Origin: Candidatus Bathyarchaeota archaeon
GTDB lineage: Archaea; Thermoproteota; Bathyarchaeia; Bathyarchaeales; Bathycorpusculaceae
Length of the DNA: 64,000 bases
Assembly: GCA_963702095.1 (NCBI GenBank)
Contig: OY969706.1
Coordinates: forward strand, 2,400,001 to 2,464,000
Direction of reading: 5' to 3'
A program made the position numbers and the translations under genes. Each line of letters begins with the position of its first letter. Within the stretch, counting starts at the first letter, position 1. Positions 1,475 to 62,691 of this stretch are shown here, piece after piece. The notes under the pieces were generated by a model. The model saw nothing but the letters and a program-made list of their open reading frames with translations. It was not told where the DNA came from and searched no databases.

Positions 1475-1620
1475 TTTAGCCCTCCTCAGGTAAGTCCTAT
1501 GTTGTTGTCTTATTTTGGGCGGAGACTATTGTATTTACCGCTGGTATAGCCGAAAAAACGCTTTTAGAAAACAAGAGGTAGAATGGGGAAAGAGGGGTTG
1601 GAATAAAAAACTGGTTCGGG

Positions 1621-1746
1621 TCTGCTTGCGGCTTATTGCACAACCAGCCTGCAAACGCCAAAACCAGCCAAACCCAAAACACAGCCGCCCACACAGCCCA
1701 CTGGTTGTTGTTGTGTATAGGCGGTTTCCGCCAACAACAACTATAG
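1621..1746 (-). repeat. Dispersed 126-bp element, GTT subtype
   Basis: Reverse complement aligns without gaps to 25265..25390 (94/126 identical by hand count). Confidence 0.95.
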
Positions 1747-1835
1747 AGTAAAACAGTACACAGCACTTTAACATGTTTTCTAGGCATAGCAGATATAAGG
1801 AACCCCACCAAATATTTCGGCACAGAAGTGTCAGT

Positions 1836-4944: not shown

Positions 4945-5126
4945 TTTTCTCTTTATGTGGGTGTGACAACCTTAGAAATGCCACAAGACCGCAATTGGGC
5001 ACGGTTGCTTTTTGCGTTTGCAACGTTTCTCAGCGCCCTTTACGGTGTGAGAAAATCGTTTTCCTCCACACCCCCAACATGCCTCCATGCAGAGCCAGGC
5101 ACGATGTGTATGTGAAACCATGTATC
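4945..5126 (+). repeat. Dispersed ~180-bp element, family 2, copy A
   Basis: Colinear with the reverse complement of 59223..59405 (TTTTCTCTTTATGTGGGTGTG, GCCACAAGAC, CGGTTGCTTTTTGCG, TTTCTCAGC), one 1-nt indel. Confidence 0.9.
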
Positions 5127-5241
5127 ATTTGCTTTCTTAGCGAGAAAGTGAACAGCGACAGAAAGCACAATAAGCGGGCACTATTCATAGAATACTTAAG
5201 GAGTTAGCCCTCTGATTAGATCAAGTAATAAAATTTAACTA

Positions 5242-14053: not shown

Positions 14054-14099
14054 CCTGCTGAGACCTCCCTCTCCCATCATCAACTTGGCAGTTTCCTGT

Positions 14100-14222
14100 T
14101 CTGCTTGAAGATTACGCCACAACCAACAAGCAACTCACAGCAATTGCAGAAACAAAAAAACAGCCGCCTGCCAAACTCACAGGAAGAAGAGTAAAGGGGA
14201 CTCTGCCTTCTTCTTAAACTAG
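14100..14222 (-). repeat. Dispersed element, GAA subtype (123 bp, one triplet shorter)
   Basis: rc: CTAGTTTAAGAAGAAG..TTACTCTTCTTCC..GGCGGCTG..GTTGTGGCGTAATCTTCAAGCAGA. Confidence 0.8.
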
Positions 14223-14236
14223 AAAAACAAAACTGA

Positions 14237-23554: not shown

Positions 23555-25221
23555 ATGTGTGGAATAGTCGGAATCTTTAACATTTCAGAGCCAATCCCTC
23601 AGGCAAGGGACAAAGCACTTCGGATGGCAGCTAAAATCAGGCACAGAGGCCCAGATTGGAGCGGCATCTACAACGACGACAAAGCCATCCTCGCCCACGA
23701 AAGACTCTCTATTGTTGACGTGGAACATGGCGCCCAACCCTTATTCGACAAGTTAAACGGCAACGCGTTAGCTGTGAACGGGGAAATCTACAACCACATT
23801 GCTCTGCGCAGCAAACTTGGAAAGGAGCATCTGTGGCAGACTAAATCGGACTGTGAATGTATTCTCTACCTCTATGACGAATATGGCGCGGACTGCCTTG
23901 ACATGTTAAACGGCATGTTCGCATTCGTGCTCTACGACAAAGCCAAAGGCATCTTCTTTGTAGCTCGCGACCACATAGGCATCATCCCACTCTACGCTGG
24001 CTGGGACGACAGGGGCACCCTCTACGTTGCCAGCGAAATGAAAGCGCTAAACGATTACTGCACAATCATCAAAGAGTTTCCCCCCGGACATTACTTGCTG
24101 GGCAACGGCAGCGAAGACTTCACAAAATGGTACAAGCCCAAATGGGCAGAAGAAATCCCGACCAAGAAACTTGAGCTCACCGAACTCCAGGAAGCACTGG
24201 AGAAATCCGTGAAGGGCGAAATGATGTCTGATGTTCCCTACGGTGTATTGATTTCGGGGGGGTTGGATTCGTCGTTGATTGCATCTATTGCTTCGAAGTA
24301 CCGCAAGAAACGGGTTGAATCCGGCGACCAAGAGGAAGCGTGGTGGCCCAGACTGCATTCGTTTGCTGTTGGCTTGGCTGATTCCCCCGATTTGAAGTAC
24401 GCAAAGAAGGTTGCAGAATACATCGGAACTGTTCACCATGAAATCATATTCACCATACAGGAAGGCTTCGACGCAATAAAAGACGTCATCTACCACCTTG
24501 AAACCTTCGACGTCACCACCATCCGTGCGGCGACGCCTATGTATCTGATGGCACGCAAAATCAAGTCCATGGGCATCAAAATGGTGCTCAGCGGCGAAGG
24601 CGCAGACGAAGTCTTCGGCGGCTACCTGTACTTCCACAAAGCCCCCAACAAACAGGAATTCTACGAGGAAACCGTGCGCAAACTCCAGATGCTAAGCAAA
24701 TACGATTGCCTGCGTGCCAACAAAGCCACCGCCGCCTGGGGTGTGGAAACTCGTGTGCCCTTTTTGGATAGGAGTTCTTGGATTTCGCCATTGGTTTTGA
24801 TCCCGAAGAGAAAATGTGCAGCGGTGACAGGATAGAGAAGTATGTGCTGCGCAAAGCGTTTGAAGGCTACATTCCTGAGGAGATTTTGTGGCGGCAGAAA
24901 GAGCAGTTCAGCGACGGTGTCGGCTACGGCTGGATAGACTACCTCAAACGCCATGCCCAAAGCACGGTCACCGACGAAATGATGAAAAAAGCCAAAACAA
25001 AGTTCCCAGTGCAGACCCCGTCCTCTAAAGAAGAATACTATTACCGCCAAATATTCGACAGTTACTTTTCCTGTCCGTCGGCGGCGTTGACGGTTCCTGT
25101 GGGTCCGACGATTGCCTGTTCGACTCCGACGGCTTTTCGCTGGAGTGAGGAGTTCAAGAAGATGGCTGATCCCTCTGGCAGGTCGGTTAAGGTGCATGAG
25201 CACGCTAAACAAGGTAGCTAG
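23555..25221 (+). CDS. asnB: Asparagine synthase B, frameshift near 24770
   Basis: MCGI, RHRGPDWSG, SGGLDSS, RVPFLD; continues in ORF 24778..25221 (WRQKEQFSDGVG). Confidence 0.93.
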
Positions 25222-25264
25222 GTTTGTTGTTCTGGGTGTTTCTGCCCTTTTTTCTGTGTTTTTT

Positions 25265-25390
25265 CTATAGTTGTTGTTGGCAAAAACCTTCTATACACAA
25301 CAACAACCAGCAGGCTGTGCTGCTGATTGCTTTTTGGCGTCTGCGTCTTTGGTGCGTTGCAGGCTGGTTGTGGCTTATTCCGCAAGCGGA
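25265..25390 (+). repeat. Dispersed 126-bp element, GTT subtype
   Basis: CTATAGTTGTTGTTG-N18-CAACAACAAC..TTGTG-N8-CGCAAGCGGA. Confidence 0.95.
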
Positions 25391-25398
25391 ACAAGGCG

Positions 25399-25797
25399 CT
25401 ATAAACCTACAACTTTTAACTCTTTAACCCTGCCAAAATGAGCATCACACGTAACCATACAATCCACTTTCTCAGCCAACGCCGTCGCCGCATGCAACGC
25501 ATCCCTCGGCGCCAAATGCAACTCCCTAATCAACCCCAGAGCAGACAACGCCAACTCCCTCGTGGCATCGATGATTTCAAGGTTGGGAAAATTCAGCATC
25601 GCCTCCGCAGTCTCCAGCGCCTTCTCCAACCCCCTATTCCGCTTAACCTCCCAGAAAACCTCATCAAAAGTCAAAGCTGACGTAACTGCCTTATCCTCGC
25701 CCGACTGGATTTTAGCCAGCAGAGCCACCGCTTTAGGGCCCTCCTTATCGGTGTTTAAGGCGGCAAAAATAAAGATGTTAGCGTCCAGATAAAGCAC
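25399..25797 (-). CDS. VapC PIN-domain toxin
   Basis: YLDANIF, TFDEV, RDALHAA, TCDAHF. Confidence 0.92.
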   Translation of the reverse strand: MLYLDANIFIFAALNTDKEGPKAVALLAKIQSGEDKAVTSALTFDEVFWEVKRNRGLEKALETAEAMLNFPNLEIIDATRELALSALGLIRELHLAPRDALHAATALAEKVDCMVTCDAHFGRVKELKVVGL

Positions 25798-26041
25798 GTT
25801 TGAATCTCTCGTCTAGTTCTTCTTCGTAAGCATGCGGGTCTACATAGGGAACAGATTTGCCGCTATTGGCGACTCTCTTGAAAACTGCGACAGCATCAAA
25901 AGCTGGCTTCTCCAACACCGCCCTATTGTCCTCCAAGGTTATCTGCACTTTCATGCCCGGCTCGATTTTAAGCGCCTTACGAATAGCCCGCGGGATAACA
26001 ACTTGCCCTTTGGGACCGACTTTCATTTCTTCCCGAATCAA
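25778..26041 (-). CDS. AbrB/MazE-type antitoxin
   Basis: KVGPKGQVVIPRAIRKAL; overlaps vapC. Confidence 0.92.
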   Translation of the reverse strand: MIREEMKVGPKGQVVIPRAIRKALKIEPGMKVQITLEDNRAVLEKPAFDAVAVFKRVANSGKSVPYVDPHAYEEELDERFKRALSGR

Positions 26042-27631: not shown

Positions 27632-27779
27632 ACCTAACCAAACCCTTTTTTCACTTATTTTTTGAACAATCGGCTTTTGCAAGCCCATATTTGGGGTGCA
27701 AGCGTTTGTTTTGGGGCGGTTGCTGTGGGGAACGTTTATTTTTTGGGTCAGCAAGAGTTGTTGGGTACAGGTAAGGCAA

Positions 27780-29017
27780 TTGTCAGGCATCAAAGTAACT
27801 AAGCGTGCAAGCAGCATCGAATATGCCATTCGCGATGTCATAGTCCACACTAAAGACCTGATTAAGAATGGCAAAAAAATCTACTATCTAAACATCGGTG
27901 ACCCTGCCGCATTCGACTTTAAAACTCCGCCCAGCCTCAAAGAAGCTCTCTGCAACGCCATCGCCCAAGAAGACAACTATTACTCCCCCTCAGAAGGGTT
28001 GCCAGAACTGCGGCAAGCAGTCGCCAACAAGGAGAAGAAAGTTAACGACGTCGACATCACAGCCGACGACGTGCTGGTCACTGAGGGCATCTCGGAAGGC
28101 ATCCAGATGCTACTCGGAGCCATCGTGGAGAGGGGCGACGAAATCCTCTTCCCAGGCCCACTTACCCCCCATACATCAGCTACACTAACTTTTTCGAGGG
28201 CAAACCAGTCAGCTACGAAACCATAGAAGCAGAAGGCTGGCAACCCAACATCGACGACCTACGCAAAAAAGTCACCGATAAAACACGTGCCATAGTCATA
28301 ATCAACCCCAACAACCCCACCGGCGCAGTCTACGACCGAAAAACCATCAAAGAAATCCTCGACATCGCAGGCGAACACAACCTCCCAGTTATCAGCGACG
28401 AAATCTACGACCAACTCACCTACGAAAAACAGTTCGTCAGCGCAGCAAACGTAACCAAAGACGTCCCCGTCATCGGCTTAAACGGGTTCAGCAAAGTTTA
28501 CCAGATGACCGGCTGGCGCTTAGGCTACATGTACTTTAAAGGCGAAGGTAAACAACTTGACGCGCTCAAAGATGGCGTGGAGAAGGAATGCAGAATCCGC
28601 ATCTGCGCAAACACTCCAGTCCAAATCGCTGCGACCGCAGCGCTAAACGGTCCACAGGACTTCGTCAAAGACATCGTCGAGCGACTCCGCGAAAGGCGGG
28701 ATTTCAGCCACAAACGCCTAAACGAACTCGAAGGCATATCCACCACTAAACCCGAGGGCGCCTTCTACATCTTCCCCAAAATCGAAGGCATAGGCAAACG
28801 TTGGAGAAGCGACATGGACTTCGTTGTGGAACTGCTCAAAGAAACAGGCGTTTTAATCGTCAATGGCAGCGGCTTCGACCCAGTGTATGGCAAAGACCAC
28901 GCTAGAATTGTGTTTTTGCCGCCTGTCGACGAGTTAGAGCAAGCCTACAGCGCGTTGGAAGGCTTCATGAAAAAGAAGGTTAGAAAGGACAGCCGCGGCC
29001 ATGTTGGCTACGGCTAA
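27780..29017 (+). CDS. Class I/II PLP aminotransferase (AlaA-like), frameshift near 28158
   Basis: IEYAIRD, LNIGDP; after the shift INPNNPTG, SDEIYD, FSKVYQMTGWRLG. Confidence 0.9.
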
Positions 29018-29907: not shown

Positions 29908-30071
29908 TTGTCAATTACTCCTTGGATGGCTGTTTCATATTGTCCAAACGTAGTTATAGGTTGCCACCGTGATACATATGATTCGTATAGAGTGTATTTA
30001 TTAATTATGAAGCTGTCGATGTCCTGTCCCTAAATTTTAGGGGTTTATGGTGTTGCCCTGATTTGCTTTTT

Positions 30072-30197
30072 CTAGATTAAGAAGAAGAAAGTATCGCCCT
30101 TACACATCATCTTCTTGGGGACTTTGTGGGCGGCTGCTTTTTTGGTTCTATGTTTGGTTTTGGTTGCAGATTGATTGTGCAATCCACCACAAGCTTT
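30072..30197 (+). repeat. Dispersed 126-bp element, GAA subtype
   Basis: CTAGATTAAGAAGAAG..TTACACATCATCTTCTT..GTGGGCGGCTG..TTGTG-N8-CACAAGC; ungapped with the GTT copies. Confidence 0.88.
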
Positions 30198-30325
30198 GCC
30201 AGCGCTCTTGTTTACCAAAAAACGTCAAAACAACAACATATTCTTGCACCCAAAAAAATGATTCAGGCAGCCTATCCGCTTGCAAAGAGAAGAGGAAATT
30301 TAGTGTCAAGCACTGTTTTTTAGCC

Positions 30326-59092: not shown

Positions 59093-59222
59093 TACTTAGA
59101 ACGGTAAGCTGTAGCCTATTATTGTTTACTCAATCTCTAATCTGTCAGCCTCTACGGGTAAGTTTGCTGATTGGTTGGCACCATGTTGATTATACCGAGA
59201 GGGCGCACAAATTTATGCTTCT

Positions 59223-59405
59223 CCAACATGCTTCCACACCCACAAGAAACCGAACCCAACATGAAGCCATGTATCTCGTGTGAAGAAAATCGGCTTATCC
59301 CACATCGAAACAGATGCTGAGAAATGCTGCAGCCGCAAAAAGCAACCGCCTTCACTTGCCGTCTTGTGGCACCCCACAAACCGCCACACCCACATAAAGA
59401 GAAAA
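59223..59405 (-). repeat. Dispersed ~180-bp element, family 2, copy B
   Basis: Colinear with 4945..5126. Confidence 0.9.
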
Positions 59406-61560: not shown

Positions 61561-61896
61561 ATGTTTAAGGGTAACAGTGGAAAACTGATGGTTTACGCTT
61601 CAGAGGGGCGTCCATGCAAGGAACGCTTAGCATCCGTGCGGAACGCCGCCAGAGAAACCGCGAAGCGGTTCAACCTTGATTTTGAGTTGGTGCGTTTCGA
61701 ACGTTCGGGCACACCCATCTACGTGTACTATGAAGACAGCGATGGAGAGCCCATTCCGCTGTATTGCGATGAAGGAAAAATCTCGGGGTTAGAGGAAATA
61801 AGCAATACACTTAGGCGCATGATGTTTGTGCTCTCGTTCCACCCTAAGCACCCGGCTTTGGCGCAGATGCGGAGCGAACTGCTTAAATTTTCCTGA
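61561..61896 (+). CDS. Hypothetical protein
   Basis: 111 aa; 3' end overlaps the convergent arcadin gene. Confidence 0.7.
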   Translation: MFKGNSGKLMVYASEGRPCKERLASVRNAARETAKRFNLDFELVRFERSGTPIYVYYEDSDGEPIPLYCDEGKISGLEEISNTLRRMMFVLSFHPKHPALAQMRSELLKFS

Positions 61897-62206
61897 AGCG
61901 GATGCCTTGGTTTTCAAGCATGACTTCGTAGACTTGGTTAACGTCGAAGGTGATGCCTAAGCTGTCGTATTCCTGCTCGGTTAGGAACAGGATGATTTTG
62001 GGTGTAGCGAGTTGTTGGCGTTGGGGCAGAAACGGCATCTGTGTTTGGAGTGCCTGCATGATGTCCTGTGCCATTTTTGCTTCGTCAGTTTGTGGGCGGA
62101 CAATGTAGGGGTTGACTTCTCTCTCTTCGAGTAGTTCGATTCGTTTTCCTAGGTTGCCGTCTAAGTCGCGGGTGGATTCGATTTTGTTGACTCGTACGCG
62201 GAACAA
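61883..62206 (-). CDS. Arcadin-1 family protein
   Basis: FRVRVNKI..DGNLGKRIEL..ILFLTEQEYDSLG..VNQVYEV, recalled similarity to arcadin-1. Confidence 0.7.
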   Translation of the reverse strand: MFRVRVNKIESTRDLDGNLGKRIELLEEREVNPYIVRPQTDEAKMAQDIMQALQTQMPFLPQRQQLATPKIILFLTEQEYDSLGITFDVNQVYEVMLENQGIRFRKI

Positions 62207-62300
62207 GCTTTTTCACTCTCGCAGATAATTAGGCTGCTCACGCATTTAAACTATTTAGGCAGACGAAACGGCGGTTCATGGCTTTGCGCCTTTTGTTTTT

Positions 62301-62426
62301 CTATTGTTTGAAGAATAGAATGCCGCCCTTACTCATCATCTTCCAGCGGACTAGGTGGGCGGCTCTGTTTTGCTTTATGAGATGAAAATGAACTGCTGAC
62401 TTGTTGAGGCGGATTCCTCAAGAGGA
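62301..62426 (+). repeat. Dispersed 126-bp element, GAA subtype
   Basis: CTATTGTTTGAAGAA..CGCCCTTACTCATCATCTTCC..GTGGGCGGCT..TTGAG-N8-CTCAAG. Confidence 0.85.
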
Positions 62427-62500
62427 ACAGGTTTCAACATGAAGACCCTTTGCTGCTCTGCCATAGACCCCTCCCCATATACAGTGGATTAAAATTTTTT

Positions 62501-62626
62501 CTTTAGTTGTTGTTGCAGAGAATCCTCTATACACAACAACAACCAAACGCAGGTGCAAGCGGTTCCGTTTTGGGTTCGGCGTTGTTCTGCGGTTGAAGGC
62601 TGGTTGTGGCTGAGTCTACAAGCAGA
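62501..62626 (+). repeat. Dispersed 126-bp element, GTT subtype
   Basis: Ungapped, 90/126 identical to 25265..25390 by hand count. Confidence 0.95.
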
Positions 62627-62691
62627 ATCCAAGTTATGCCAGCTGCAAACAGCCCTTTTCCTTAAATACAATTCAGCAACATTCCATAACT

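Follow-up and report, generated by a model that had tools for sequence, protein, structure and literature searches.

A dispersed non-coding repeat of about 134 bp is a strong determinant of genome plasticity in its bathyarchaeal lineage, and its polar behavior is unusual for a non-autonomous dispersed repeat. We find that this element is a double-stranded DNA site composed of several boxes, with a length that hardly varies, and that, together with a sister repeat, it accounts for most of the large rearrangements between two species. Core genes remain with its left flank, while the right one changes over and contains lineage-specific DNA. The element stays at the same gene ends from one species to the next even as its interior is exchanged for other alleles or for the sister repeat. 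Since the element marks most reshuffling points and foreign genes accumulate at just one of its sides, it looks like a site of gene acquisition that has not been described. Our preferred reading, to which we assign a probability of roughly 55%, is a non-coding, non-autonomous polar recombination element that would be bound by protein, cut by a trans-acting nuclease, repaired by copying and used by accessory genes as a dock on one side. The genome plasticity of Bathyarchaeia, which are abundant archaea of sediments, is unexplained; the element marks the chromosomal entry points of genes for surface proteins, toxin-antitoxin systems and restriction, acts in plasticity without the hallmarks of transposons or integrons, and offers a defined 134-bp substrate for finding the enzyme.

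The window (the whole stretch of 64,000 nucleotides that was analyzed) carries genes of archaeal type and belongs to a genome, labeled G000 here, that consists of a 2.94-Mb single contig and is 90% complete by markers. Six copies of a fixed-length 126-bp element had been predicted in the window, and all six align where they were placed, five of them without gaps and the 14100 copy one triplet short. A profile built from these six copies and iterated extends the family to 182 matches in G000, 170 of them near full length; chance is ruled out by this number, since most matches reach an E-value of 1e-20 or better. The length proved tightly held, as predicted, but not absolute. The core from CT to CAAG spans 119–124 nt in 166 of the 170 copies (122 nt in 112), and the conserved stretch covers about 134 bp, from a T-run about six bases ahead of the start given earlier to CAAGCAG(AAC). 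Core length is at most 1 nt off the mode in 138/158 copies in G000, 104/120 in its relative G007, 20/21 in G005 and 11/13 in low-copy genomes. Length is thus near-constant even though the median identity among the 170 copies is 61%; the 70–75% first reported applies to the closest pairs only, the six window copies being 51–75% identical to one another.

From left to right, the element consists of a T-run followed by CT, a left inverted repeat of GWW/CWW triplets, a middle box ending in a T-run, a TGCWG motif, and a right core in which two 10-bp inverted arms enclose a variable 6-nt spacer (Table 1). The listed motifs keep their fixed offsets, and TAC at positions 30–32 is found in most copies, with the genome-wide rule being TAC or TGC (A in 123, G in 43 of 170). 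Instead of the free sequence drift of the original prediction, we find two linked left-half alleles (110 and 60 of 170 copies), whose repeat arms are inherited jointly (A-A in 106, G-G in 59). Small allele modules to the right of the left repeat are nearly unlinked, and the copies are therefore mosaics. The right core retains a G.G mismatch in 139/170 copies. We read the left and right inverted repeats as probable binding sites on double-stranded DNA. The consensus ends over 170 copies (T-run-CT; CAAGCAGAAC) match as inverted repeats over 4 bases only, in agreement with the predicted lack of terminal inverted repeats. Inspection by eye likewise revealed no target-site duplication at 11 candidate empty sites or in 12 near-identical pairs, at a genome identity of 87%. 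As also foreseen, copies lie between convergent, divergent and tandem genes, with all four flanking-gene orientations about equally frequent (48/45/41/36 of 170). We note nested copies at L180 and L186, where a left half is directly followed by a full copy.

Table 1. Features of the element, its sister repeat and an adjoining gene cargo in the window.
Feature	Position	Strand	Remarks
Element copy, left allele G	25259..25392	+	Orthologous G007 site occupied
Left end, T-run then CT	25259..25266	+	Fixed boundary of copying tracts; common to sister repeat
Left inverted repeat: (GWW)n arm, 18-nt spacer, (CWW)n arm	25270..25307	+	Two alleles, arms co-inherited
Middle box with T-run	25324..25337	+	Present in sister repeat; right-half remnants start at or just ahead of it
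33-bp stretch	25354..25386	+	Best non-element match of its profile in the genome lies inside proviral terminase gene (may be chance)
Right core: 10-bp arm, variable 6-nt spacer, 10-bp inverted arm, fixed G.G mismatch	25364..25389	+	Without compensatory change
PIN toxin and AbrB/MazE antitoxin genes	25399..26041	-	Example of accessory cargo at a right end
Element copy, allele G	1619..1752	-	G007 orthologue 94.8% identical to G007 orthologue of 25259 copy; 75% for the two in G000
Element copy, allele A, one triplet short	14098..14228	-	Orthologous G007 site occupied
Element copy, allele A	30066..30199	+	3' of class IV aminotransferase gene; ABC/FtsX module on right
Element copy, allele A, first of tandem pair	62295..62428	+	
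Element copy, allele G, second of tandem pair	62495..62628	+	
Sister repeat, ~230 bp	4948..5172	+	T-rich left end and middle box like those of element; swaps with element at orthologous sites
Sister repeat, second window copy	59212..59402	-	

The rearrangements were mapped against G007, a relative of G000 at about 87% identity, over 1.5 of its ~2.8 Mb, in regions chosen partly because they hold copies, a choice that can inflate test and control breakpoint counts alike. The compared DNA contains 128 distinct element copies. Of 67 rearrangement breakpoints, 59 fall within 400 bp of the element (44) or of the sister repeat alone (15), compared with 45 of 98 collinear indels in the same DNA that served as control (Fisher p 1.5e-8). 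The element family and its sister thus mark most rearrangement breakpoints between the two species. Ten G007 copies were classed as combining the left flank of one G000 copy with the right flank of another. Opposite the G007 left flanks, G000 has an element in 67 cases and a sister repeat in 13; for the right flanks, these numbers are 47 and 9. We scored 11 possibly empty G000 sites, of which two hold the sister repeat and about five are clean with ragged borders. A few sites are empty in the relative, and the element is therefore also gained or lost. The 15 junctions at the far ends of right-side islands revealed no motif; together with the ragged borders of the empty sites, this fits both insertion and deletion. 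In the window, synteny with four genomes of greater distance (G005, G008, G024 and G001) breaks off at the left end of the 30066 copy.

The two flanks of the element behave differently. Among 108 G007 copies, the flank without a G000 homologue is the right one in 37 and the left one in 9 (discordant 35:7, p 1.5e-5), and homologue coverage over 3 kb is 0.84–0.89 on the left and 0.52–0.71 on the right. The asymmetry recurs at 10:1 in 31 copies from 29 of 80 named public-record loci, a set that excludes loci possibly duplicating genomes already sampled, and at 13:1 in 18 copies from low-copy genomes (coverage 0.65 left, 0.10 right). In these sets, housekeeping genes such as those for thermosome, LysRS, ribosomal proteins and IlvD are among the left neighbors, and the right neighbors are surface proteins (kelch, PQQ, NosD), an antitoxin, a methylase and unknowns. 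The earlier statement that most copies border accessory genes is therefore correct for the right side and incorrect for the left. Of the 108 accessory segments in G007, 39 adjoin a right end and 7 a left end, 1 adjoins both, and the other 61 adjoin neither. G000 contains six right-half remnants, which start at model positions 51–74; each has a copy in the same direction as its nearest upstream neighbor, within 4.5 kb in five cases and with genes in between in five. High-identity tracts are not in excess on the right flank (at least 93% identity in 7/432 versus 18/554 windows), and there is therefore no sign of recent cross-species transfer starting at the element. One two-gene cassette recurs at L021 and L022 (G000 197.9–200.7 kb and 988–991 kb), in both cases with a full copy on one side and a right-half remnant on the other; it encodes a secreted protein and a membrane-anchored one, and one of the two cassette copies is decayed.

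Resident copies are also overwritten by other copies. In G000, 15 pairs reach at least 87% identity; 8 of these are no more than 60 kb apart, every one of them inverted (background 2.1%). An identity of at least 85% is reached by 8/301 near inverted pairs versus 0/274 near direct pairs. One direct G007 pair (95.5% identity, 8.5 kb apart) is an exception to this bias. The G007 orthologues of the 1619 and 25259 copies are 94.8% alike, compared with 75% for the pair in G000, with which the two sites are collinear; the G007 pair therefore reflects conversion of a resident copy and not a new insertion. At one orthologous site, G007 carries allele G and G000 allele A. In near-identical pairs, identity mostly begins at the T-run and stops at variable points, from mid-element to 20 bases past it; two such pairs share 12–20 bp of co-carried right flank, and one diverges at the right-core spacer. 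Overwriting is partial, since orthologous copies (~0.76 alike) are still more alike than random paralogues (~0.64).

The element is restricted in its distribution. The exact right-end motif occurs in 27/120 genomes of the genus and, when two mismatches are allowed, 20/120 genomes have at least 8 matches, with a maximum of 157. Outside the genus, a single match was found, in 1/286 genomes sampled from the class, and viral contigs contained none. Public records carrying the motif (at least 80) are labeled Bathyarchaeia, uncultured archaeon or Thermoproteota. Copy number is independent of ProRS identity (G061, at 90%, has 1 match; G050, at 80%, has 37). In four genomes, the element sits just 3' of the 16S rRNA gene, T-run first (G000 2047901–2048022; L029, L205, L230), and this is an old conserved site. 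A 2-kb stretch with 91–94% identity in three relatives, thought to be horizontally transferred, turned out to be the 16S rRNA gene.

The sister repeat, of about 230 bp and with 116 matches in G000, resembles the element in its genus, its T-rich left end, its middle box and the sites it occupies, and also in flank asymmetry (0.85 left, 0.65 right; 38 copies). It differs from the element by its left module and by two TGTGG...CCACA pairs with longer spacers, and the copy numbers of the two repeats vary independently.

Breakpoint enrichment, one-sided accessory DNA and allele overwriting all support the original proposal of a geometry-constrained nucleoprotein site for recombination or cassettes, and we infer protein binding, cutting and an enzyme behind the element. 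In the mechanism we favor, proteins would bind the boxes at fixed spacing and a trans-acting nuclease would nick or cut there. The left end would stay and prime copying from another copy, starting at the T-run and stopping variably in or past the right core, while the right end would be resected or rejoined by short homology, giving one-sided deletions and entry of foreign DNA. Repair would be left to host recombination; exchange between inverted copies would survive as conversion or inversion, and exchange between direct copies would delete the interval and be purged.

The best lead for the cutting enzyme, suggestive at this stage, is a candidate capsid-less terminase pair that stands alone in G000 (2735002–2736837; L242 5003–6838), flanked by a full copy and a right-half remnant. 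In G000, the small-subunit gene (terS) of this solitary pair reads as frameshifted, as does the solitary terL of G007; assembly error may be the cause. Orthologues (~85% identity or more) are present in ten other genomes, all of which carry the motif. In 8/9 genomes, a copy aims its right end at the 3' end of the solitary terL, 0.9–5.2 kb off, with four left contexts and different cargo; in the ninth, the contig ends 2.2 kb past the gene. This linkage may go back to one inherited event, at a site where accessory genes gather in any case. Terminase homologues (TerL) are found in 94/120 genomes of the genus, often several per genome, and in 20/20 genomes with at least 8 motif matches; G060 and G110 (43 and 81 matches) are without the close orthologue. 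Should a terminase prove to be the enzyme, a viral packaging nuclease would have found a new use, and archaea would have a route to directional gene transfer.

A second line of evidence concerns sequence similarity to terminase genes. A 33-bp right-end profile, derived solely from copies of the element, places a site within a proviral terL at the top of 5.78 million non-element windows, the 33-bp window having been chosen after weak matches there had been seen; the site ranks 1–22 for eight of nine right-end windows tried and ~265 for the ninth. A 33-bp look-alike is located inside terL at 34–36 of 80 viral loci and is the sole standout among 44 profile windows, and the estimate for a chance match in terL is 0.03–0.4. 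A synonymous bias toward the element at the terL site (10.3 versus 6.7 bits) failed a gene-wide control (rank 112 of 440). The solitary terminase clade has lost the right-end match, and neither the 80 viral loci nor a pattern search of viral contigs yielded a full element. In the terS promoter, the middle box is found again in 4/11 members of the solitary clade versus 0/17 others. Just 5' of the solitary terS, the promoter region at L246, L247 and L248 contains an element-like box as well as AT-rich 14-bp repeats in tandem.

These findings allow a more specific scenario, which we hold tentatively and regard as rather unlikely: the element may be a host-amplified pac-like site read by the domesticated capsid-less terminase pair (or by proviral terminases), with cuts at ~180 sites that would drive copying, rearrangement and one-sided turnover and may start directional packaging of host DNA. 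The pac site of phage P22 lies inside a terminase gene, and about nine 22-bp look-alikes are described as chromosomal pac-like sites (PMC11260489, PMC9611059). Like the element, these are polar chromosomal sites that could direct a terminase and one-way mobilization of neighboring DNA, whereas the element comprises ~180 copies of a 134-bp multi-box unit. Also unlike the P22 case, the element resembles the large-subunit gene, to a degree that is modest in statistical terms, and its packaging is a prediction. If true, archaea would possess a distributed system of gene transfer or of virus decoys.

Against the nuclease model, breakpoints and inverted pairs alike could result from passive recombination of old repeats. 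The element would then be an old selfish repeat, a relic of MITE or REP type whose only remaining part is to supply short homologies to host recombination, without a dedicated cutting enzyme. Patchy copy number unrelated to ProRS identity, random spacing along G000 (CV 0.96) and mosaic alleles are consistent with such a relic, as is the failure to find a cognate enzyme in G000: Y1 HUH transposase (PF01797), TnpB (PF07282), IS110 DEDD recombinase (PF02371), reverse transcriptase (PF00078) and serine resolvase/recombinase each gave 0 matches, with positive controls (in 3 for reverse transcriptase). Similarly, an autonomous copy, with element ends around a gene, was not found in 12 partial copies, 80 named loci and 20 low-copy loci. 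However, accessory DNA on one side is not what symmetric homology would predict, more than long homology is needed for the element to replace the sister repeat, copies are just 61% alike at the median, and length and boxes are held across distant species. We therefore consider this explanation unlikely.

The right core suggests another possibility, an attI/attB-like dock of a tyrosine recombinase with the 10-6-10 core as crossover and point of cassette entry. Core sites of tyrosine recombinases have an arm-spacer-arm layout, as does the right core; new DNA lies on the far side of this core, G000 encodes seven tyrosine recombinases, and one near-identical pair diverges at the spacer, as noted above. 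Yet tract ends are scattered and not fixed at the spacer, and the remnants start far to the left of the core. Of three tyrosine recombinases checked as the enzyme, two end at tRNA genes, and another recombinase is present in 4/120 genomes and in none of the other high-copy ones. The integron integrase model TIGR02249 gave no match above cut-off, and its control never exceeded the cut-off either. Taken with these points, a tyrosine-recombinase dock appears improbable.

Much the same low standing applies to a non-autonomous rolling-circle element of the IS91/ISCR or Helitron type, in which a nick at the left end would be followed by copying through a leaky right hairpin, with right-hand DNA carried along. 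IS91/ISCR elements and Helitrons have one fixed and one variable end, make no target duplication and capture adjacent DNA. The element resembles them in its one fixed and one variable end, its lack of terminal repeats and visible duplication, its T-rich target and the right flank carried along in two pairs. It differs in that copies are replaced in place and near pairs show a strong inverted bias, which rolling-circle copying leaves unexplained. The right hairpin, moreover, folds weakly and without covariation (pair probability as DNA up to 0.5). The original prediction had included a REP-like HUH substrate, which finds no support in G000: the Y1 transposase gave 0 matches, as did Y2 HUH (PF04986), whose control was without matches anywhere as well.

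Least probable of all is a structured non-coding RNA or chromosome-organization site with rearrangement as a side effect, both of which had been among the first proposals: inverted repeats at both ends and the persistence of some sites in distant species, such as that 3' of 16S rRNA in four genomes, are in its favor, but the RNA is ruled against by Rfam (a tRNA only in the window, nothing at the element), an empty consensus fold of the element alignment, mutual information between neighboring columns only, weak mean folding z-scores (-0.25 to -1.31) and one variable right-stem pair that is complementary 73 times versus 73.6 expected, and organization as the main role by the random spacing, no strand bias of copies along the skew in G000, no 10.5-bp periodicity of conservation (p 0.9) and the absence of the motif from most of the genus.

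The polar recombination element that we favor behaves as a dispersed, one-sided integration platform, yet falls outside MITEs, REP/PATE repeats, IS110/IS1111 derivatives, attC/CALIN sites and structured RNAs. A SINE-like retroelement would call for a reverse transcriptase, for which G000 gave no match, and an IS110/IS1111 derivative for a bridge RNA with covarying stems, where no covariation was seen. Prokaryotic MITEs and related intergenic repeats (ERIC, Correia, RUP, SPRITE, REP), reviewed in PMC10969869, are short, non-coding, multicopy, intergenic, lineage-restricted and tied to genome plasticity, as is the element. Unlike them, the element lacks terminal inverted repeats, shows no target duplication and has no cognate transposase that we could find; it also combines 61% median identity with near-fixed length, overwritten resident copies and one-sided flank turnover. 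Integron attI/attC sites, archaeal ones included, are likewise recombination sites with accessory genes on one side and variable sequence with conserved geometry (10.1101/2022.02.06.479319). In contrast to these, the element is dispersed singly, in any gene orientation, with no cassette arrays, no covarying hairpin, no fixed crossover point and no IntI match over the TIGR02249 cut-off, under which the control also remains. As far as searched, with supplements and subscription journals outside the search, the element is undescribed, and no description of such a repeat was found. The main text of PMC11697101 is without "repeat", "rearrang" or "transpos", and the accessible text of PMC13343696 is without "Bathyarchae".

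Several further features were noted. The two intact IS6-like DDE genes in G000 (1161792–1162949 and 1962817–1963947) have flanks unlike the element; they encode N-terminal zinc fingers, have no evident terminal repeats and are accompanied by fragments elsewhere. In the window, an asparagine synthase gene (23555–25221) and a class I/II aminotransferase gene (27696–29017) are each split over two frames, possibly through assembly errors, and a gene of the Arcadin-1 family (61883–62206) adjoins the tandem copy pair.
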